Source of the DNA: Eledone cirrhosa
Taxonomy: Eukaryota
NCBI GenBank assembly: GCA_964016885.1
Contig: OZ024743.1
Span: forward strand, 154,380,001-154,444,000
Direction: 5' to 3'
DNA: 64,000 nucleotides
The position numbers and the translations under genes were made by a program. Of the stretch, positions 745 through 64,000 are shown in pieces. Positions within the stretch are counted from its first letter, which is position 1. Each line of letters starts with the position of its first letter. Below the pieces are notes generated by a model. It searched no databases. It was given only the letters and a program-made list of their open reading frames with translations, and had not been told where the DNA came from.

Positions 745-807
745 CATATTTATAAAAATTATAAAAAATAAACAAAGAAGCCTTCAATACATCACAAGTC
801 TTTATTA

Positions 808-848
808 GCTGACAATGTTTCGTCCCATTAATAAGGACTCATCAGAGC
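808..848 (-). ncRNA. Minimal type I hammerhead ribozyme (pLTR of the adjacent PLE)
   Basis: Minus strand reads gct-CTGATGA-gtcc(ttattaatg)ggac-GAAAC-att-GTC-agc, then aataaa; downstream of and co-oriented with the PLE ORF. Confidence 0.85.
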
Positions 849-2332
849 AAGTAAAGAGACAAGAAGCTTTAACGGCCAGAACAAGCCACCACTCAGAAGA
901 ACAGGGAATGTATATCTATGAAAACTTAGGAAAGACATCATGGAAAGACATGCTAAAGCTAAAAGTGTGCATTTGCACATATAGTCTATAGGGCAAGAGA
1001 GCCAGTAATATGTCAAACCCACGTTGAAAGAACAATATAAGACAAATACATGAAACACAACATGGTAATACAATATGAGAATTATATGATATAGAATACA
1101 ATATAATGGATAATAAGAAATAAAATGCTTAATATATATGTCTATATATATATCCATATATATACACATTTAAACAACACATACTAACACTTATTTAAAT
1201 ATTTAAATATAAGTATACTCGTTATAATATAATAATCATTATAATAGCATAATCAGCCTGACGGTGTGCATAAACAATATCAAAAACATTGGAATAATAT
1301 ACTGACATTAAAAAATATATAAAACTACATCATACGTATCATTTAAGGTCAACAAATTGTATATAAAATGTTTCACAGGGTAAGAAAAAATATCATATAA
1401 AAATAAAGTATGGTGAAAAGAAAATATATAACTATATATAATATTGACAATAAATGTCCAGAGGTATATGCAGTTCAAATTCATAAAATATTACAAAACA
1501 GTACCTCAATATCGGACATTTATATATAATTCAATTACATAAAAATAATATGATATATTAATGTTAATATTGCAATAGCAGACACACAGAATCAATGGAA
1601 AATGCTTAAGACATATTTACGCGATGTATACAAATAGACATATCAGGAGACAATAACAAATGACAGGAGAACAGACAGCATGTGGTAGTAAAAAAATAAA
1701 TAAAATAAAACGAAAAACGAAAACAAAAAACAAGCACAGACACGTAGGCGTTACAAGTCATTAGGTAAATATATATAATATTACTATTCTGGATCAAAGA
1801 ATTAAATTGAAAACCTTATTAAATTAATTAATACTAAAACTGTTTAAATGACATTATGGGTCCCTTCATATGGAACCAAATTTAAGTCATCAAGGTCGAA
1901 TAAAATTAAGATATTTCAATAAGAAAACTAAAAGATCTATCAAGATATATTACGATCCGTCCAGACGAATTACGTTATCAACGAACAAAATCTAAATAAA
2001 ACTATGGTAGACCAATGGGAACAGAAAGAAGTAGAACTATGGAGGGTAGGAAGGAGCATAAAAGTAAAAATTTATATATAATCAATATAAATTGACTATA
2101 TATAAATTTTATATAATATTAAATATAATATTATTTTCATCCCAACCGGGGATGAAAATAAACATAGAAACTGATAAGGCGACAATGGTGAGTAAAAATG
2201 TAAATAATGGTTAAGATGATAGATAGGGTAAGATAGCTAAAAAGCCTATGAAAACTGAAATCGAAAAACCGTAGAAAACCAATAATCGTAATAATAATGA
2301 ACTAAAACCCAAGAGATAAGGAAATACAGCAG

Positions 2333-4070
2333 CTAATGGATACGGTTTAAACTACCAGAGCTTTTAGGTCTATAATAGAAGAAGGAATTAGAAATAGCAT
2401 GCGGACAGGAAGAACAAATTTCAGATTTTCTATTAAGCAATACGTTCCTAGAGAAAATTGTAGAGTGGGTCTCTAGGATACAAAGATTACAGAATTTAGC
2501 GTGTGTTGAAAGGTGATTAGAGTGTGCTACTATACGCCAATTTAGGCTATATGGTATACCAGCCCCTTTTAAATCCCAGATATGGTGTGCTAAAGAAGTA
2601 GAGTTCTTAAATTTGATATGCTTAAAATTCGAAATATGTGAATTAAACCTAGTTTTAAAAGTATTAGATGTGGAGCCTATATATATTCTACAAGAAGAGT
2701 TACTCTTAAATTCACATGCATAAACAATATTCCTAGAGAGGCAGTGACCATTCAAAGGGCAGTTATTACTTAATCTACAGTTACACTTCCTGGTACTAGT
2801 GATTATCTGATTATGCGATGCATTATTCCTAGGGTTATTAGAAGATAGATCTGCTCGGGTGGTAAGTTGTTAATAGAGCTATCTAGATTAGTGGTACGCA
2901 AAGAGCAGTAGCTGTCACTAATTTTCCTATTATTAGTACTAGCTAGATGCGAATTAATGTTAGGGGTCTTAGAGAAGGAGAGTTTAATTACATTGTTATT
3001 AAAGATACTATGGTATTTATTAGTAGGAGGGAAATTTTTCTCTAAAATAGAAAAGAAAGATCTAGGGATATTAGTTAATACTTCATGATTATAAGGCGGT
3101 TAAAGTAAGTATTGAGCCTCCTCCTATTCTTACCTTTACTATTTCTATTTCTATCTCGTATCCTATTAATAGGATTAGGGTTAATACTAGGACCAGTTGA
3201 ATTAACACTATTAGAAGCCGTTAAAACATTACCACTGGGTGAACGTTCAGAGCGTCTATCCAGTTGACTAGAACTAATCTCAAAAAGTGTACCATTAGAC
3301 TCACTATTACGATTATTATTGTGGTAGTTATACATATGGTTCGGTTTGGATGAATCAATAACATTTCTATGATTCCTAAATTTTCTTCTCCCATTCAAGG
3401 CCATATTATGGGATTACACGTTATTATGGGTAATCGTAGACATTCCAAGGTTGTCATGTTTATAGTGTATTCTACCAGAGTAACCAGAGTTAGCTAGGGC
3501 ATTATTATAATACTCAGCATGTGAATTAAATATTCCTATATCTTTAGAGAGTGTGGAGATTCTATTAGATACACCATTAATAATAGAACTAATCATAGAT
3601 TTAGGGTGGTTGGAATTAGGATTAACGTAAGAGAGTGTCTCATTTGGCTTGTGGAAGGGTTTATAATTATTAGTGACCACGTCTAATGTCACATGTAACA
3701 AGTTAACTGCTCTATCATTCTTATCAATCGTGATCGAAAGGTTAACATTTAAAAAAAATTTATATAACTTCTTCCTATTATGTTCAATGCTATTAGTACT
3801 AGAGTTTATCACAAATAATGCATCATCATGATAAAGTCCACCTTTAAGGTGCGGAAATCTAACATAAAGTTCGTTCAATAGGTACAGCCCAACAAGATCA
3901 GTTACCTGCGCAGAATCACTCGAACCCATGGTAACGTCAAAGTTGTTGGGTGTGTTTTTACGCGTCAAAAGTGTATCCTCGAAATTGATGATAGTCCCAC
4001 GGGCGGCTAGTATAACATCAATCTGGGGTCGCGTAAGACTAGACATTTTTCGGCTCTGTTGGATTACATT
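2333..4070 (-). mobile_element. 5'-truncated, disrupted Penelope-like element (RT C-terminal half, linker, GIY-YIG endonuclease)
   Basis: FDVTMGSSDSAQVTDLVGLYLL, GLYHDDALF and YKPFHKPN..SNHP in 3414-4046; NIVYACE..YIGSTSNTFKTRFNSH..CNLC in 2333-2755; stops and frameshifts between them. Confidence 0.9.
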
Positions 4071-4152
4071 GAGCTATATCTGATACTGTCATTTCTCTAA
4101 TACGACGAGTGTGTTTAACTCTAACGCACTCACGTATTTTAATCTTATATAT

Positions 4153-4239
<87 letters not shown>

Positions 4240-4328
4240 AAAGTTCTATTTAAATTGTTGGGATGCAAGAAGCAAATATTTTTATAACTGACATAAAGCA
4301 CTCAACAAGTAATTGGAGTAAAAATACA

Positions 4329-4448
4329 ATATTAACGAATGGAAACTATATTTATAACACCATATTTATTTCATTATACATATTTCAAGGACACCAAGTT
4401 AAATTATGGTGTGCTTTCATCAGATAAAATATAATATAGAGCAGTTTT
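4329..4448 (-). repeat. HHR-bearing ~120-bp repeat, copy 2 (intact core, HHR at 4373-4428)
   Basis: Reverse complement of 1-115 and of 4608-4729; CTGATGA..acacca/tggtgt..GAAA tatGTA. Confidence 0.8.
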
Positions 4449-4607: not shown

Positions 4608-4729
4608 AAAACTGCTCTATATTATATTTTATCTCATGAAAGCACACCATAATTTAACTTGGTGTCCTTGAAATATGTATACTGAAATAAATCTGGTTTT
4701 ATAAGTATAAGTTCCATTTGTTAATATCG
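4608..4729 (+). repeat. HHR-bearing ~120-bp repeat, copy 3 (core mutated to CTCATGA)
   Basis: Near-identical to 1-115; forms an inverted pair with 4329-4448; followed by (TA)n. Confidence 0.8.
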
Positions 4730-4765
4730 TTTCAATGTATGTATATATATATATATATCTACATA

Positions 4766-4993
<228 letters not shown>

Positions 4994-8274: not shown

Positions 8275-9835
<1,561 letters not shown>

Positions 9836-9870
9836 TATATAATAACTTGTGTGTTACACCTCTATTCTTT

Positions 9871-9964
<94 letters not shown>

Positions 9965-9965
<1 letters not shown>

Positions 9966-10724
9966 CTTAGTCTTAGTCTTAGTTCCTCCAGTCCCTTGTA
10001 GAACATTGGGCGCGACGAGCTTCCTCCACTTGATCCTGTTACTGGCGGCTCTTCTAGCACCTCTCCAGATAATTCCCATCTCCCGCAGGTCCTCCCTGAA
10101 TGTGCTCTGCCATGTTTTTCGTGGTCTTCCCCGTTCTCTCCTGCCACCTTCTGGTAACCAATCCATGGCAATATGAGCAGGTCGATCTGCCGGCAAACGA
10201 AGGATGTGGCCCGCGAACCTCCGTCTCCTTTTCCGGACAATGTCCCTTAACCTCTCCAATCCTGACCTCCTCATCACTTCCTCGTTGCTAACTTGGTCTC
10301 CCCATGACATTTTCAATATGGTCCGAATGCAACGACGGTGGAATACATCAAGCTTGTAACATACACTCTCCGTACACTTCCATGTCTCACAGGCATATAT
10401 CGCTGTTGGTACTACAATAAACCTGTACACACGGAATCTGACCGCGTTGCCGACGGAACACATGGACCATACGGACAGAGTCGCTGGAAGACCGCCGCTG
10501 CTTTTCCCAGCCTTGTGCGCACATCCACCTCAGCATCCCCATCGTCAGAAATGTTGCTGCCAAGGTATTGGAACTGTTTTACACATTCAATATTACGCTG
10601 ACCAACCATGATGGGAGGATTTGGATGGTCACCTGTCGACATGGTCTTGTTTTTTCACAACTGATGCGCAGGCCAACTTTCTCTGCATTGTCATTTAGAA
10701 CGTTTGCAATATCTTGCACTGCTT
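9965..10724 (-). mobile_element. RTE-clade LINE 3' fragment
   Basis: [49 protein letters not shown]; (CTAAGA)3 tail; flanked by microsatellites. Confidence 0.9.
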
Positions 10725-10730
10725 CTCTCT

Positions 10731-10867
<137 letters not shown>

Positions 10868-11110
10868 ATATATATGTATGTATATATATATATATATGTA
10901 TGTATATATACATATTTCCTTCTTCGGTTAGCTTCCCCCTGTGTTGTTTACTTGTCTCACTCGCTTTACGCGTTTCTATTGTCCTAATAACTTATTTAAG
11001 TTATTATCGCTCCAAAGTGAGGTATATGATCGTTTGGTAAATCACTGATGAGGGACTCATTTTATAACATGTTATCCATGTGCAACCAGCAGTATTCTTC
11101 TCACCTATAT

Positions 11111-11173
<63 letters not shown>

Positions 11174-11330
11174 TATATATAGAGATGTAAAAAATGAAAC
11201 GTTTGTACGGTTGTTACTTAAATCTAAGTATGTATACGTACATGCATATATGTATATACACGTACAGTAGTATGTATATATATACATACTACTGTACGTC
11301 TGTATACATATATGTATGTGCGTATACATA

Positions 11331-11420
<90 letters not shown>

Positions 11421-11459
11421 TAGGTATACGTACATATATATAATGTGTCCCTAGATTCA

Positions 11460-11990
11460 TTAGATAAAATATATACAGTATTTCTTCTCACAATTAGCAT
11501 AAATCAACCACACACAAAAATCATTTAAACGAGGCTAGAATTTTAAAATATTCTTATGAAGGAACAATCGATAAATGATATAGCTTTTCATCCGCAACTC
11601 ACAGTTACATACATTTACCTAGTATTTCTGATAGCCTGTAGAATTTGAGTAGACATATGGGTAACCATACATAATTAGGTACAAAGTCAAATTTAGAAGA
11701 AAAAATGTACATAAACATAACAAAATCATCAAAATATCTCTACTACAGGCGGTTTCACTCACTTTTTGGCTATATCCGATCTTGGATAAATCAACGAGGT
11801 TGGAAATCATCAGGAGATAAACTCAATTGGACAAATATTCCTCTTACATGATCCCCGCCAGAAACGAATTAAAAATGGCTAAGAATCGTTACATATTAAA
11901 TGGTCAAGGCATAAACTGTGTGATCGGTGCGTGACGGCGAGTAGGCTGGTTGCCAGAAAGCGCAGCCGAATACTCCCTAAAGTCTTACTC
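11460..11990 (-). repeat. Non-coding repeat block A copy 1, with HHR at 11735-11819
   Basis: Aligns with 13140-13660 and partly with 15800-15955; minus strand reads tatctc-CTGATGA-~50 nt-GAAAC-cgcctgta-GTA-gagata. Confidence 0.75.
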
Positions 11991-12049
11991 AACCTTTCGG
12001 GAATATATAAAATGTAATGGGTATATACATAATAACTAGACAAAGCCAT

Positions 12050-12345
12050 CTGATGAATTATAAGAGCCCACTTGAATAAGTATCTGTTGATCTTATACAA
12101 GCTTCTACATAAATTGGTATAATTTCACCCAAATTGTAGAAATCTTATAGTGAAACGAGTCGTCTGGGAAGTGATATATGTGTTATATCTCATATGAAAT
12201 GATACAGCCAATGTAACACACAATACAATTAGTTAGCAGGCCGAACGTTTAATTAGGAATATACTCAGGCATTTCCTAATGTTTGTTGAGTGAGTTGGAA
12301 TTTGGCCGGCATATCGCTATTAGCTTTCTCCGATTATGTATTTAT
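12050..12345 (+). repeat. Non-coding repeat block B copy 1, with long-helix-II HHR at 12046-12168
   Basis: CTGATGA at 12050; attataaga/tcttatagt helix II base; GAAAC-gagtc-GTC-tggg; duplicated at 12745-13040. Confidence 0.8.
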
Positions 12346-12744
12346 ATATTTACTCTTGGAGCAACAGATATGAACTTTCCCGATATAAGGTATGACTCTC
12401 TTTGTTTATTTTTTATATGAATATTGATTGTTTGTTCTTGTATCTCATTCTGTTATTTTGCCCGAGAAAATAGCTATGTGTGTCATCAAGCGATGCGCAC
12501 ATATGGTTATTTTTTCATATCCAATTGATTTATAGCACGTAGCTTGAATTATTTTCAGAATTCATTGACATGCGCATGTATTGTTTTTTGGCGGTAGTCT
12601 CCTTCCTCCTATTTTCGAGACAGTGTGAGATTATCTTTAGAACTGCTGGACTAACAACCTAGCAGCCCCCTCAAGCACTGATGGTGATTATCGCTAAATA
12701 TTGATGTTGATTTGGTTATCAATATAGATATGATTGTGCACCCA

Positions 12745-13040
12745 CTGATGAATTATAAGAGCCCACTTGAATAAGTATCTCTTGATCTTATACAAGCTTC
12801 TACATAAATTGGTATAATTTCACCCAACTTGTAAAAATCTTATAATGAAACGAGTCGTCTTGGAAGTGATACATTTGATATATCTCATATGAAATGATAC
12901 AGCCAATTGTCCACACAATACAATTAGTTAGCACCCTGAACGTTTAATTAGGAATATACTCAGATATTTCCTAATGTTTGTTAAGTGGGTCGGAATTTGG
13001 CCGGAATATCGCTATTAGCTTTCTCCGATTATCTATTTAT
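12745..13040 (+). repeat. Repeat block B copy 2, with HHR at 12741-12863
   Basis: ccca-CTGATGA-attataaga..tcttataat (9/9 pairs)-GAAAC-gagtc-GTC-ttgg. Confidence 0.8.
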
Positions 13041-13139
13041 ATTTATATATATATGCTTTTGGCAACTATTGACGGTGTGGCTGAAAGACGAATTAATTAA
13101 ATAACAGAGCAATATATAAAAAATATGACCATATTATTA

Positions 13140-13660
13140 TTAGGTAAAATATATACAGTATTTCTTCTCCCAATCAGCATAAATCAACCACACAAAAAAT
13201 CATTTAAACGAGGCTAGAAGTTTAAAATATACTTATGAAGAAACAATAGATAAATGATATAGCTTGTTATCTGCGACTCACAGCTACAGAAAATTTACCT
13301 AGTATTTCTGATAACCTGTAGAAATTGACTAGACATATATTTAACCATACATAATTGTGTACAGAATCAAATTTAGAAGAAAAAAATGTAGCTAAACATA
13401 CCAAAATCATCAAAATATATCTACCATGGCGGTTTCATCACTTTTTGGATATATCCGATCTTGAATAAATCAACGAGGTTGAACATCATCGGGAGTTAAA
13501 CTCAATTGGACAAATATTTGTCTTACCTGATCCCCGCCAGAAAGGAATTCAAAATGGCTGATAATCGTCACGTAGCTAGTGGTCATGGCAGAGAGTTTGT
13601 GATTGGTGCCTGTCTGCGAGTAGGCTGGTTGCTAGAAAGCGCAGCCGAATACTGCCTAAT
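13140..13660 (-). repeat. Repeat block A copy 2, with degenerate HHR at 13416-13498
   Basis: Diverged direct copy of 11460-11990; core reads CCGATGA; GAAAC-cgccatg-GTA retained. Confidence 0.75.
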
Positions 13661-13969
13661 GGGAGTATATACACTTTAAAGGGTATATACATATAAAATA
13701 GACAAGGAGAAACTAAGAGAATTATAAATAAATAAATAAATAGATAAATAAATAAATAAATACATACACAAGCACAATAACAACAAACACATATAAACAC
13801 ACACTAGTAAAGATAGAATACATTAACCAATACACAGTCACCCAATCACGAACACACATCAAACAAAACACTATACCAACACGCAAACGCATGCGCAATG
13901 AAGACAAAATAAAATAAACAAATAAATAAATAAATAAATAAATAAATAAATATATAAACAGACTAAATA

Positions 13970-14262
13970 AAGATGGCGCAGAAAATAAAATGTAACGGGA
14001 GGAAACAATAGCACAACTGACAATGTTGCAGATGTGCAACGAAAGAACTTTGATAAACTATATATATGTGTATGTGTCTATATTGTATCTGTATTATTTT
14101 TGACCGTTGATCAGTCAATGGCAACAATGAGGACCGAATAAATTAGATTACCGATATAAAAGACACAGAGAGCGAAAAGCGAAAACCAACCAAACAGTAA
14201 GTGTGTTCAGTTATTAATTCTGGCAATATTACAGAAATATGACCCTCCCCAAGTATAACAAA
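13970..14262 (+). repeat. Dispersed pLTR-like repeat with degenerate HHR (14012-14053)
   Basis: Homologous to 59365-59695, 8127-8272 and 60166-60195 (inverted) through the accctccc(a)aagtataac motif; CTGACAA-t-gttgca(gatg)tgcaac-GAAA. Confidence 0.65.
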
Positions 14263-14277
14263 ATATATATATATATA

Positions 14278-14718
14278 TATAATTGTAGGAATCGGGTTGA
14301 TTACCCCCTATCCGGGAAATGCCTCTCTAGTAACATTGTCTACAAATGTAAGGTTGTAACACCCACGTCTCATAGGGCCTACATAGGGTTAACCGCCAAT
14401 AGATTCAAGCAGCGTCTTTACATGCATATCCGTTCTTTTCGTTACCCTCTAAGAAGGAATATGACGTCACTTTCAACTTATATCTGGAGTCTAAAAGACA
14501 GCCACACCCAATATAAGTTACACTGGGAGATCCTAGCTAGGGCTAGATCGTATAGCGGTAATAAAAGACCATGTGACCTCTGCGTTGCTGAGGCCCTGGA
14601 AATACTCTATGCCAGAGACCACATCTTAAACAAAAAATCTGAGGCAATTTCGGCTTGTAAACATAAATTGCACAAAACTTTCCTGTATTACAGCCCCACG
14701 CTATACCCTAACGGATAG
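14278..14718 (+). mobile_element. Penelope-like element GIY-YIG endonuclease fragment
   Basis: NCRNRVDYPLSGKCLSSNIVYKC..YIGLTANRFKQRLYMH..TSLSTYIW..CDLC; 5'-truncated at (TA)n; ~1 kb of probable 3' UTR follows. Confidence 0.9.
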
Positions 14719-15719
14719 TACGATTTATACGTGGATATTTTACGCCTTGTTGTGGGAGCTAAGTATGTTTTATTTATACCATTACTTATTTGCATAGGTA
14801 AGTATATATTACCCGTATGTTTGTGAAGGTACGTATACCTTCTCGTACGTATATTTGATTGTTTATGTCATGGGATATAATTTTATATATTCTGGTACAT
14901 ATGGTTTGACAATGTGTATACGGGAGTTATGCGTCTGTGCGTGTATGCAGGTTCGTACGTATGTTGGGTGTGTGTATATGTGTACTTCATGTTTTGGTTC
15001 ACATACGTCTCCGAACATTCGTGTATTTACATGTAGGTATGGATGTGCGCTTGTTATATACGTATTTATTTATTTATATACGTTTATATAATTATTTATT
15101 TATTTGTATACACGCATACACACACATATTTATATGAGCGTGGTTTTGTATACCGATGGTAAGTGTTATGCGTATGCTTGTGTATGTAAGTATTTGTTTG
15201 CGTGTATGTATTTATTTATTTCTATTACTTCTGTATTGTATTTATTTACTTTGCTCTTAACTCTGTAGCGGAGATTCATTCGGTCTCCTAGTTAGAATTT
15301 TAGTCTACGACTTCTGCTATACGATTTACGTGGTTTTGTCTTTGCGTGCTATTGTTCTCCACGGTCCACATATGACGTATTATCTTCGTTTTTTTCGTTC
15401 ATTGCCAGAGAACGTCTCTATGAACCACCTAAGAGAACATTAGTCTAAGACCTCTTTTATACCATAAACGTGGTTCTGTCTTTGCGCGTAATTGTTTTTC
15501 ACCGCTCCTATCAATGACGTATTATATTCGTTTTTTCCCGTTCTTCGCCAGCGAACGTTTCCAAGAACCAAAGTATCGTCTTCCTGTCTTCCTCCGGTTG
15601 CAACGTTTTTTGAAATATCCACTTCTGCGTTTACAGATTGACTTTGTTAGTTTCAGAAGATCCCGTTAAGGTTGAAAGCACCGATTCTTTGCTTAAACTT
15701 TAATCTGTTATTTTAATAA

Positions 15720-15770
<51 letters not shown>

Positions 15771-15980
15771 TTTGGCAAACCATTCATAGTGTGGATCAAT
15801 GACGAATTAATTAAATAATTAATAATCAGAGCAATATATAAGAATCATTAGATAACATATATACAGTATTTCGTCTTCCAATCAGAATAACTCAACCACA
15901 TAAACAATCATTTAAATGAGGCTATAAGTTTAAAAAAAATATACTTATGAAGAAACACACACACACAGACGCCCCCCCCC

Positions 15981-16050
<70 letters not shown>

Positions 16051-59068: not shown

Positions 59069-59364
59069 AGTGAAGAATAGAATTGGCTGTGTAGTTGGTA
59101 TTTAAGTTAACATAAAATGCAGTGTCAATACGAAGAAAGCAAGAACGGGGGTCCTCACAGTTGTCTACTGGCGTCTAGGATATTTCTACGCTTTAAAGAC
59201 AATATACCTCGCCCCAGGGCGTACATACCTGGATAATATATTGGGAAAACGGAAGAAGGAGGGAAGGAATCCGAAGGGGAAGAAAAGAGAAAACAGTAAC
59301 AATACACAGAAAAATAACAACAAATCGAGCATTATGCGAACAACTATGTTTATTATTAAATAAA

Positions 59365-59695
59365 AATGGCGTAGGCATACAATACAACAGGAGGAAACAT
59401 AATAGTACCTCTGATGATATAGCAGATGTGCAAAGAAATAACTTTGTTAGACTATATATATATATTTATATCTGTATTTTTGACCGTGGGAAAATCAATG
59501 ATAAACATTGATTGCCGCATGAATTAACTATGGAGATATAAAAGATACAGAAGCGAAAACCAACTAAACAGTGAGTGTGTTCTTTTATTATATGTGGCAA
59601 TATTATTACAACAATATGACCCTCCCAAGTATAACAATATCTGTTTCGACACACGATTTCATATCAAAAACCTCGCAAAAAAATTCATCGCCGTC
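59365..59695 (+). repeat. pLTR-like dispersed repeat, homologue of 13970-14262, with degenerate HHR
   Basis: aaatggcg..ggaggaaaca..CTGATGA(59411)-tatagcagatgtgcaaa-GAAA..gaccctcccaagtataac. Confidence 0.65.
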
Positions 59696-60670: not shown

Positions 60671-61814
60671 TTAATTGTAAGTTGTGATGTTGCTGTTCCA
60701 CTCATATTTTCTATTTAATTTTGGTTTTAATTCTTTTATGCTTACTGCCTCTGTAATTTGCCTAAACATTGCGTCTTTCTTGTGTGTGGATTCTATTTTT
60801 ATTTCTATGCTCTCTAATTTACCTCTGTGTTCTATCTTAGCATGTTGGTAGAGCACAGATGATTCTTTATTATCTTGGAGGTCTCGCCAGTGTTCATTTA
60901 TTCGTTCCCCTATACTACGAGCTGTCTCACCTATGTACACTATATTTTTGTTTCTACATTGTCCTTCAGTACATCTTATGCTATATACTACATTTCTAGT
61001 TTTACAGTTAATATGGGGGCTTATTTTACAGGTTATACATTTCTTATCTATACATGAGGGTCTTTGGAACGGGTTTGTCTTGCTAATAAGTGTTTTTACG
61101 GAGGTACCAGGTCTTTCTACTATCTTAATATTGAGATTATGTTTCTTTAGGGCCCTTCTAAATTTGTAGGCTAGTTCGCCTCTAGGGGTTGTATTGATGA
61201 ACATTACACTCTGGTATTTATTGCTATCATACCATGAGTTTATTCTATTGGCCTTGTTCTTAGTTCTTTCTATTCTATTCCAAAATTTGCTCCTATACAA
61301 GGGGCAGGTCCCATTTATGTCATTATTTACCATTTTTTCCCATTTGGTTCTGGCTCCTTTATACACTCTGATTCTATCTCTCTGATTGTAGCCAGAGAAC
61401 TGCATACGGTGGATGAAGTGTTGTATGTGTCTCTCTAGTTCTTCGGGGTTGCACATGCGGGACACATTTCTCATCACCCGTACCAAATCCGCAATCAGTA
61501 TGTTGATTTTGGTATGGTCCGAAATGGCCGAGTTTCGGTGGATCAGATGTTTGGAAGTCATGGGTTTGGCATAATGGGAATGGAGGATTTGTTTTTGGTT
61601 GTTAATTGTATCTAACCAGAGCTCTGTGTCTAGTACAGGTAATCGATGGTTGGGGTGTCGACTTGGGTAGTCTATAGTAATTCTAATGCTCTGCTGGATG
61701 GAGTTTGCTATTTGGTGGATGCTTTCCATTGTGTTTTTCTCTACTTCCTGACTGTTCTTTAGTGGGGGTGTCTTAACTACGATGTTTATATCATCTACGT
61801 AGCGGGAGTACATT
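60671..61814 (-). mobile_element. Penelope-like element 3' half (RT end, thumb, GIY-YIG), open frame
   Basis: YSRYVDD..LPVLD..HYAKP..SGY..CITC..NCKTRNVVYSIRC..YIGETARSIGERINEH..HAKIEH..EAVSI..LN. Confidence 0.93.
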
Positions 61815-61918
61815 AGAGAGTTACTATAGACTACCCAAGTAGACACCCCAACCATCGATTACCTGTACTAGACACAGAGCTCTGGTTAGATACAATTAAC
61901 AACCAAAAACAAATCCTC

Positions 61919-64000
61919 GAATAATACACACACACACGGAGACAACAACAACACACATCAACAACAACACACATCAACAACAACAACACACACGCATTCA
62001 ATGCCTCTCACCACCACCACAATCTTAACAAACACACAGACACAGAAAACAAGTAATGACAGTAGCACAGAAATCAGAGAAATAAGAGAAAGTAATAGGA
62101 TTAAAAGGAGAAGGAGATGGGAGACTAAGGACAAAGAGAATAACCAAGACGAACACACAGACACACAAAATAGGGTAGATAACAATATTGAGCCAGTGGA
62201 AAGAGACAGGAGTAATTATGAGAGACATAGAAACAACCATGAAGCTGAGGCTGCTGCTGTTGGTGGAAATAGAAACAACACTAACAATAACAATAGCACT
62301 AGTACACATAAAGCAGCAGCCTGGAACTCTCCGATTTATAACCCCTCCGATAAATCATTCGACCTACGACGAGTCCACGCCACGACTTTGCCATTTAACA
62401 AACGCACGCAGTTGCCGTCGCAGGTCGATAAATAAACAGAAGCAAAATTTAGTATAGCTAAATCCGAACTTAGAAATATTATAGAACAGTATAGCAAGAA
62501 GCATAATAGAATAGAGGCCCAGCAACTGGGAGAAGAATCTGCAAATGGCTTGCGTAAGCTCATGCAGCGCTCGCGTAATGGAGAGATAGCATGCTTTCCA
62601 ACAGACAAGTCTGGCAGAATGTCGGTTGACAGCCTGCCAAACTACATCCAGGCAATGCAACCCCACATCACTAACACAAGAGAGGTAACACTACAGGAGC
62701 ATGAGGATAGAGAAAAAACCCTCAATGCCCATATGGTGATGTGGACAAATATAATGCAGCCCAACAAAAGGACTGCCAACAACTTCCAGGCCTGGAACAA
62801 TGACGTGCCGGCGTTGTATGGGCTTCGAAAAGACCATAAAACGGGCTGGGACCCTGTCGCGGGACCACCAACACGGCCAGTCTGTGGGGCTAACATTGCT
62901 AGTAACTACAGACTGTCCTACCTCCTCTCCCTGATCATACGCCCCATCATTGAGATGTCCCCAGATGTGTGTGACAGCACGGAGGACCTCCTCAGCAGAA
63001 TCGGCGCGGGTAACCGATCTGGGGACCTAACAAACTGCATAATAGGCAGTATGTATGTTGTGTCCCTGTATCCATCTATTGACGTGGATTTTGCTGTGGA
63101 GAAATGCGTCGAAATGATCAGCGAGAGCAAGGTTGAGTTCCGTGGGATTGATACCAGTGAGATGTGACTTCTACTTAAGCTTACCCATAGTAATAGTTAC
63201 CTAGACACTTATGACCTTAGCAACCTGTGCCCTACAAGACCAGCAAGAGGCAGACCACCTACCATTACCTCAATGGCCAAGAAAACCCACACAGATAGAT
63301 GGAACGGGTGGACCAGAGCCATACGGACACCCGAAAACCACGATGAACTGAAGAAAATGATTGCACATGCGGTAGGGGCCAGCATAAAATTAACCCTTAA
63401 GGAACATATGTTCAAATTAAATGGTAAAACATATGCCCAAGAGGAAGGAGCAGCCATTGGTGTTAGCATTGCAGGCGACATAGCTAACTTATTCATGGTA
63501 TGGTGGGACAGTAGACTTAAACAAAAACTTAATGAACAATTAGAAGACAGCTTAACCCTGACAATGTACTCCCGCTACGTAGATGATATAAACATCGTAG
63601 TTAAGACACCCCCACTAAAGAACAGTCAGAAACTAGAGAAAAACACAATGGAAAGCATCCAGCAAATAGCAAACTCCATCCACCAGAGCATTAGAGTTAC
63701 TATAGACTACCCAAGTCGACACCCCAACCATCAATTACCTGTACTAGACACAGAGCTCTGGTTAGATACAATTAACAACCAAAAACAAATCCTCCATTCC
63801 CATTATGCCAAACCCATGACTTCCAAACATCTGATCCACCGAAACTCGGCCATTTCGGACCATACCAAAATCAACATACTGATTGCGGATTTGGTACGGG
63901 TGATGAGAAATGTGTCCCGCATGTGCAACCCCGAAGAACTAGAGAGACACATACAACACTTCATCCACCGTATGCAGTTCTCTGGCTACAATCAGAGAGA
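61919..64000 (+). mobile_element. Penelope-like element RT region (same family, opposite strand), runs off the window
   Basis: TDKSGR, LYGLRKDHK, TRPVCGA, V.SLYPSI, QEEGAAIG, YSRYVDD; 63563-64000 is near-identical to the reverse complement of ~61377-61814; stops at 62433 and 63165. Confidence 0.92.

Follow-up and report, generated by a model that had tools for sequence, protein, structure and literature searches.

A 64,000-nt stretch of contig OZ024743.1 (hereafter the window), part of a 3.0-Gb genome, contains many (TA)n tracts and retroelement fragments, and among them lie four hammerhead motifs in non-coding blocks that appear to be arranged symmetrically, as A-B-B-A. This layout raises the question of whether the four ribozymes form one functional module, as a preliminary description proposed, or have come together in some other way. 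After analyzing the locus and related copies elsewhere in the genome, we consider it very probable that an ORF-less element, B, is nested in an unrelated ORF-less element, A, and that the two are likely to be non-LTR retrozymes, Penelope-type retroelements that are non-autonomous and are copied in trans by a Penelope-like RT-endonuclease with (TA)n targets.

Architecture of the locus

Family A is present on the minus strand as two parts of one partial-tandem insertion. The downstream part, A1 (11434–12049), has its fixed 3′ end at ~11442, where it continues into a (TA)n tract (11330–11418), and the upstream unit, A2 (13057–13705), carries the unit junction motif at 13115. The A blocks 11434–12043 and 13114–13705 are 84% identical, A1 and A2 are 86% identical over 577 nt, and a short third fragment of the family, also on the minus strand, lies at 15769–15957. 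Between A1 and A2 lies the B insertion (12050–13054, plus strand), which consists of 1.45 units of an ORF-less 695-nt unit and is 5′-truncated at the upstream hammerhead core. The interval 12745–13042 is a second copy of 12050–12347, 695 nt apart and 93% identical. The two A blocks and two B repeats described earlier are present, but B does not amount to two full tandem blocks, and the left edge of A2 reaches ~13057.

B occupies the internal TA tract of A, which is uninterrupted in other family A copies; the 3′ end of B meets this tract at 13043–13056, the insertion site. Moreover, A1 and A2 have six derived variants in common, three of which were seen in only 1 of 66–110 other copies. Because such rare variants are common to both parts, we regard A1 and A2 as one insertion split by B.

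The idea of a single functional module with four ribozymes draws on the symmetric look of the window. However, a comparison of A with B revealed no similarity beyond TA runs, the two families are found separately elsewhere in the genome, and the A-B-B-A arrangement was absent from every other locus fetched. One A insertion is interrupted by B, and all four ribozymes are damaged. Therefore, such a module is next to inconceivable, and the corresponding claim of the preliminary description has to be abandoned. A and B do sometimes adjoin elsewhere (e.g., L005, L111 and L128), as do other (TA)n-targeting families. Since both families target (TA)n, we view the symmetry as an accident, and the A-B-B-A layout has no significance of its own.

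Copies and insertion signature of families A, B and B′

Both families are dispersed, with hundreds to thousands of copies each. A first look at the genome gave 4,309 and 3,159 candidates for the two families (40 scored in each), and the 3′-end patterns had 457 (B) and 259 (A) exact matches, with 0 for the controls. The unit measures ~700 nt in A and 695 nt in B. A 72%-identical relative of B, designated B′ and discovered in a flank, is young, with best matches that are 98–99% identical and 2,489 exact 3′ matches; its ORF-less units are 743–1,009 nt long. The longest stop-free frames are 72 aa in A, 88 aa in B and 48 aa in B′, in keeping with the earlier view of the blocks as ORF-less and retrozyme-like, and the GC content of 10001–14000 is 32–36% (below 50%). 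In L274, L290 and L295, the B′ units went from 743 to ~990–1,009 nt via an internal 248-nt duplication of the unit start.

The ends of the copies follow a clear pattern. Among the 30 best B matches, 29 share one 3′ end point, followed by (TA)n. Of the best 30 A matches, 25 end at their own fixed point into (TA)n, 4 extend into a following unit and 1 stops in a different repeat; family A has a second fixed 3′ end ~130 nt beyond the first. In the window, the B unit junction (12340–12360, plus strand), with a TA-like tract followed by ATATT(T)RCTCT at 12346, corresponds to the fixed 3′ end of insertions and is the probable internal RT start. The 5′ ends are variable in both A and B and fall mostly within TA. 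An inverted 5′ copy, joined head-to-head, was found in 26 of 70 A rows (23 distinct loci) and in 2 of the 30 best B matches, and none was flagged in 90 position-ordered B rows. TSDs are obscured by insertion into (TA)n.

A fixed 3′ end, 5′ truncation and partial tandem structure are Penelope-type traits. Tandem structure, inversion, a tail and (TA)n bias appear as Penelope features in Craig et al. (10.1101/2021.04.23.441226), and Frangieh et al. (PMC11167929) showed that two 3′ ends represent internal RT start sites. Because A and B are ORF-less and insert as Penelope-like elements do, they look like non-LTR retrozymes.

Hammerheads of the window

The four CUGANGA...GAAA...UH motifs reported previously were confirmed in the sequence, as was the spacing of 695 nt between the predicted cuts after 12164 and 12859. 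The 695-nt monomer proposed on this basis (12165–12859, plus strand) is the true repeat unit, and it is predicted to be strongly self-paired as a circle (z −4.0). However, when compared with the family alignments, none of the four window copies is an intact family hammerhead. The type I hammerhead of A1 (11734–11821, minus strand; core start at 11813, predicted cut at 11742/11741, helix II of ~50 nt) is decayed in the 3′ strand of helix II and in helix III. The B1 hammerhead (12050–12168, plus strand; predicted cut after 12164) has no helix I 5′ strand of its own, since the truncated element starts at the core; the adjoining A sequence fills the helix I position. The B2 hammerhead (12736–12868, plus strand; predicted cut after 12859) has helix I, the core, the 9-bp helix II base leading into two hairpins, and the pseudo-palindromic helix III, all as previously described, together with two point lesions, namely, a mismatch beside the cut and one in hairpin 2. 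The A2 hammerhead (13413–13500, minus strand) is a relic with a CCGAUGA core and a broken helix I.

The window copies alone folded no better than shuffled sequences (z −1.85, −1.73, +0.47 and +0.01). Judged from their lesions, the four hammerheads of the window are likely inactive. An Rfam scan of 9000–16000 returned no hammerhead at E ≤ 1 and only microsatellite-driven miRNA matches; the A and B hammerhead variants fall outside the Rfam models.

Helix II of the family hammerheads

The family alignments retain the core (CUGANGA, GAAA and UH) and helices I–III, with one type I hammerhead per unit. The B-clade skeleton has 2,847 exact genomic matches versus 0 for the reversed control, so its recurrence exceeds chance. 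In this clade, helix II is ~90 nt long and contains a three-way junction, in which the 9-bp base opens into two hairpins. The B-clade alignment comprised 52 of 107 collected hammerheads (14 of 39 B-short, 10 of 23 B-long and 28 of 45 B′). Across 25 named pairs, 95.9% of cells pair. Two-sided changes affect 6 of these pairs, hairpin 1 and the helix II base having two each and helix I and hairpin 2 one each, compared with no more than 2 in slid controls. These compensatory changes support the branched helix II that had been proposed for B, and they represent only two lineage splits, with four pairs distinguishing B from B′ and two changing within a small subfamily. Because the collecting pattern required a nearly intact base, the invariance of the helix II base is partly built in. 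RNAalifold independently predicted both B hairpins but not the outer helices, and further subfamilies among the skeleton matches vary hairpin 1 again with pairing kept (by eye).

Helix III differs between B-short, B-long and B′ and is palindromic in each. It forms only as a duplex, with predicted self-duplex energies of −6 to −19 kcal/mol. The helix II base is A-U or U.U, the usual G10.1-C11.1 pair being missing. In predictions, the active fold scores low in the complete B unit (0.04 for helix I and 0.17 for helix II), and in A it does not exceed 0.05 even in isolation. Given that whole units are predicted to disfavour the active fold, the RNA would have to fold co-transcriptionally, dimerise or be assisted by a protein in order to cleave, as has been reported for PAc.

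A branched helix II formed by two small hairpins had also been proposed for A, and here the family alignment (42 of 44 collected hammerheads) speaks against it. None of the nine pairs in the two proposed hairpins changes on both sides in the 42 rows. The first hairpin (caac/gttg) overlaps the real helix II base, which is TTCCA/TGGAA in the family, and it is broken at its outer pairs in 10–12 of 42 rows, including one subfamily. The helix II base itself swaps C-G to G-C in one subfamily. Since the hairpins display no two-sided change and the first one is often broken, we describe A as having a long helix II region (~50 nt) without a demonstrated branch.

The literature that we searched contained nothing relevant on a branched or long hammerhead helix II, although a fold of this kind may appear in Lunse et al. 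2017 or in the supplements of PMC4209133, PMC7229834 and the 2026 preprint. A branched helix II would escape Rfam and short-stem descriptors, and such ribozymes may therefore be under-counted. A long helix II may be common in this genome. We speculate that the helix II junction of B may be a docking or regulatory module for a Penelope protein.

5′ ends of genomic copies at the predicted cut site

We collected the 5′ ends of B from 90 position-ordered loci of the 457 matches and kept 87 of them, leaving out two duplicates (L106 and L120) and one copy that is rearranged internally (L116). Judged by the BLAST start, 18 of 81 copies end within 16 nt on the 3′ side of the cut, versus 0 of 63 within 16 nt on its 5′ side; six first-unit rows were excluded from the denominator of 81. 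After the TA overlap was stripped, the counts in windows of 30 nt were 16 of 79 on the 3′ side and 0 of 63 on the 5′ side (Fisher p = 6e-5). The stripping concerned BLAST over-extension through TA in four rows; L191 and L192 share a flank, and L203, a B copy, was left out. The B background is ~8.5% per 30 nt, so the excess is only ~2.4-fold. By eye, 13 distinct B copies retain diagnostic bases within 16 nt of the first cut, and L011, L195 and L347 each start at the base directly following the cut. On the second pass through B, 2 of 9 copies in the position-ordered sample stop at the cut, and 6 of the 22 best matches reaching it were verified to do so.

B′ was sampled at 70 position-ordered loci, of which 53 last-unit rows were kept after the removal of 2 duplicates, 2 edge rows and inner-unit rows. 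In this sample, 7 of 47 copies stop after the cut versus 0 of 40 before it (p = 0.014). Family A displayed no clear pile-up (~6 ends after the cut versus 4 before it, of 108). At L195, the copy that starts right behind the cut directly adjoins a short mid-unit B piece, an arrangement that resembles a template switch at a cleaved end. A 4-nt insertion at the B cut was considered as a template-jump scar and rejected, as it is a subfamily marker in ~1/3 of 109 junction rows.

The genomic copies, through their piled-up 5′ ends, probably preserve a fossil record of cleavage in vivo during the spread of the element. More tentatively, we propose that the B clade is a recently active retrozyme lineage with a conserved three-way-junction helix II, whose copies record at near-base resolution that each ribozyme cuts ~1/5 of germline templates.

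Candidate helper elements

A coding Penelope-like element, family D, lies next to the A and B blocks as a separate insertion (14282–15721, plus strand), which is 5′-truncated and retains the endonuclease end and the 3′ UTR. Elsewhere in the genome, family D has intact 713-aa ORFs and (TA)n ends. Its protein had no Pfam or PDB match, and its 1,249 homologues are unnamed except for one gene id. From an RT YxDD motif, a CxC...C linker and a GIY-YIG-like YIG, together with the tandem structure, we take family D to be Neptune-like. A related ORF of the window (2336–2869) gave a GIY-YIG match below threshold.

The unit junctions of B′ and D match at 38 of 50 positions (z 4.3, in a window picked by eye); when the comparison of D with B′ was confined to 80 nt upstream, z was 2.0. 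The B-D and A-D junction alignments were not significant. ATATT(T)RCTCT occurs just past the fixed end in A, B, B′ and D, and its only three matches in the window are A and B junctions. We searched 14 near-full-length copies of the coding families D and family 1 by BLAST and with profiles for a helper pLTR homologous to A or B and found none; apart from the junction, A, B and B′ gave only short or TA-rich matches. Because the B-D and A-D alignments are not significant and no wider homology was found, family D is no more than a candidate helper for the B clade.

The terminal repeat of D (15650–15700 in the window, plus strand; also L418–L425) has no canonical hammerhead core. It carries CAGAAGA...GAAA around a small hairpin, which is kept in 7 of 8 near-full-length copies and is possibly a non-canonical core. 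Another Penelope-like element, assigned to family 1, occupies 745–4073 on the minus strand; its 3′ UTR is long, and it has a short hammerhead of canonical form near 845. Family 1 has many young copies, with ORFs of up to ~900 aa.

Alternative explanations

The pile-up of 5′ ends could instead reflect TA microhomology, or stalling of RT at the edge of the folded hammerhead, with a ribozyme that does not cut in vivo. Most of the piled-up B ends coincide with an ATATAT 10 nt after the cut, as microhomology would have it; the most TA-like control site, the junction TA, collects 3 of 26 ends and, taken alone, is inseparable from the cut site (p = 0.27); and insertion of a Penelope element in vitro did not require its hammerhead, whose cut had no RNA-seq reads (PMC11167929). 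However, the five TA-like control windows together collect only 8 of 200 ends, and hardly any (0 of 63) fall at the much stronger hairpins just upstream of the cut. The start of three copies coincides exactly with the cut, several more begin between the cut and the TA site, and B′ repeats the pattern. We therefore judge this explanation unlikely and favour cleavage in vivo. It is quite possible that B spreads as a rolling-circle retrozyme, in which a ligated ~695-nt circle is the main RT template and partial tandems result from copying more than one time round. Rare variants are shared by tandem units in 20 of 132 cases, compared with 64 of 3,175 random pairs, although they fit the transcript of a young tandem equally well. 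Further points for the circle are that 7 of 87 B copies exceed 878 nt, more than a 5′-cut dimer allows, and thus need uncut or ligated RNA; that A reaches 2.8 units; that the units are predicted to be compact as circles (z −4.0 to −5.5); and that circles have been shown for coral, mussel and axolotl retrozymes (PMC7229834). However, the second-pass stops at the cut are not predicted by a closed circle, whereas a partly cut linear multimer predicts them. As read from the genomic copies, at least part of the templates are linear, cut RNAs.

A different doubt concerns the units themselves, since A and B might be truncated 3′ UTR or pLTR ends of coding Penelope-like elements outside our samples. 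Our full-length comparison covered only two coding families, whereas the genome has ~60,000 Penelope endonuclease candidates, and Li et al. (10.64898/2026.07.22.740005) report retrozymes homologous to pLTRs. However, in copies long enough, the unit start always follows the 3′ end of another unit and never an ORF (30 + 90 B, 30 + 70 A and 30 + 70 B-clade rows inspected), and subfamilies have altered their unit length through the internal 248-nt duplication. No RT or GIY-YIG ORF was found in A, B or B′ units, and no copy is continuous with a Penelope ORF. Truncated ends of coding elements are thus a very improbable source, and we continue to regard A and B as ORF-less elements that are probably mobilised in trans.

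A putative mechanism of spread

For the B clade, we envisage the following course. Read-through transcription of a partial tandem would produce RNA of more than unit length. As suggested by the genomic footprints, the B hammerhead, with its 9-bp helix II opening into two hairpins, would cut part of these RNAs, probably as a dimer via the palindromic helix III and perhaps with the assistance of a protein. A putative helper protein would nick a (TA)n tract, consistent with the fixed ends observed, and RT would start at an internal TA-like site of fixed position, 183 nt beyond the cut in the downstream direction; in A, two such sites ~130 nt apart would serve. Synthesis would then stop at variable points, with ~1 copy in 5 stopping at or just after the cut on the first and the second pass, which is the pattern seen among the copies. 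Because the ends pile up just 3′ of the cut, RT would be expected to run off the cut 5′ end, and the cDNA would join the target through the ATATAT 10 nt inside. Longer copies would derive from RNA whose site is intact, be it an uncut multimer or a ligated circle, and the data fit both.

Comparison with known systems

A and B resemble metazoan non-LTR retrozymes (PMC7229834; preprint 10.64898/2026.07.22.740005) in their ORF-less head-to-tail units, each with a type I hammerhead, in their low GC content, in a weak palindromic helix III that implies cleavage as a dimer, and in the proposed mobilisation by Penelope elements. A U.U at the helix II base, as in A and B′, also occurs in HHR_Amex2 of the axolotl. 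The units of these retrozymes span 150–450 bp/170–400 nt in the 2020 paper and 51–972 bp in the preprint; the units here, of 695–1,009 nt, exceed the former range and fall mostly within the latter. They are dispersed, mostly as fewer than two units in (TA)n, and have a helix II of ~50 nt (A) or of ~90 nt with a three-way junction (B clade). Li et al. argue in the same preprint (10.64898/2026.07.22.740005) that retrozymes derive from Penelope pLTRs and reach 972 bp, and they report that 8 of 9 retrozyme dimers tested did not cleave in vitro.

The pLTR hammerheads of Penelope-like elements (PMC4209133; Lunse et al. 2017, via PMC6765202) are likewise type I, with a short helix I, a palindromic helix III and a longer-than-canonical helix II. 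However, theirs is an unbranched helix II of 6–8 bp with G10.1-C11.1 (PMC4209133), whereas the helix II described here has an A-U/U.U base, is branched in the B clade and belongs to units without an ORF. Non-autonomous Chlamys elements (MRC1) and (TA)n-inserted Naiad and Neptune elements share partial tandems, 5′ truncation, an inverted 5′ copy, a tail, microsatellite targeting and non-coding derivatives with A and B (10.1101/2021.04.23.441226). Unlike A and B, Naiad and most Chlamys elements are without hammerheads. For A and B, we found no clear homology of the 3′ end to an autonomous family, and the tail of A measures ~130 nt instead of 30–40 bp. Craig et al. also call the role of the hammerhead in endonuclease-bearing Penelope-like elements unclear.

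Poseidon PAc of Anolis (PMC11167929) resembles the present families in internal RT initiation downstream of the hammerhead, in two start sites that yield a tail, and in AT-rich targets. In PAc, uncut RNA was the dominant substrate in vitro and no reads fell at the cut (PMC11167929), whereas the genomic copies here appear to record cut templates. Plant LTR retrozymes (PMC7761336 and the 2026 preprint) have a similar ~700-nt unit and a predicted compact fold; however, their hammerheads are of type III and lie in true LTRs that come with a PBS, a PPT and 4-bp TSDs, while those described here are type I, with an open-ended helix I, in partial tandems.

Other repeats of the window and of the genome

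A (TA)n-ended repeat family with a hammerhead whose helix II is 30 nt long occurs at 1–321, 4146–4448 and 4612–4932 in direct and inverted copies, with cores at 22 (plus strand) and 4423 (minus strand) and a relic near 4632. Another TA-ended family, at 13706–14281 (plus strand) and 59357–59640, has a hammerhead-like relic near 14017, and its first copy is joined head-to-head with A2 without a TA spacer. At 8288–9965, terminal inverted repeats of ~520 nt (93% identical) flank microsatellite-rich DNA in a MITE-like arrangement, and a third Penelope-like element with an inverted 5′ copy (61377–61814 versus 63563–64000) lies at 60671–64000. Elsewhere in the genome, other type I hammerhead families have a helix II of 36–90 nt and a palindromic helix III (L252:5635, L009:3567 and L028:983 on the plus strand; L252:3979, L067:418 and L257:7515 on the minus strand).

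Significance

A and B are new elements of a known kind, the non-LTR retrozymes, and the B-clade fold and the cut-site footprint go beyond the published descriptions that we found. Since B′ is young and a candidate helper with an intact 713-aa ORF exists, the system can be tested at the bench. If true, the record of ~1/5 of templates being cut would constitute in vivo evidence of the function of Penelope-type hammerheads, and it would favour partly cut linear multimers over closed circles as templates. The census of 5′ ends makes the genome itself a record of cleavage, and it can test circular against linear templates in any species with such families.
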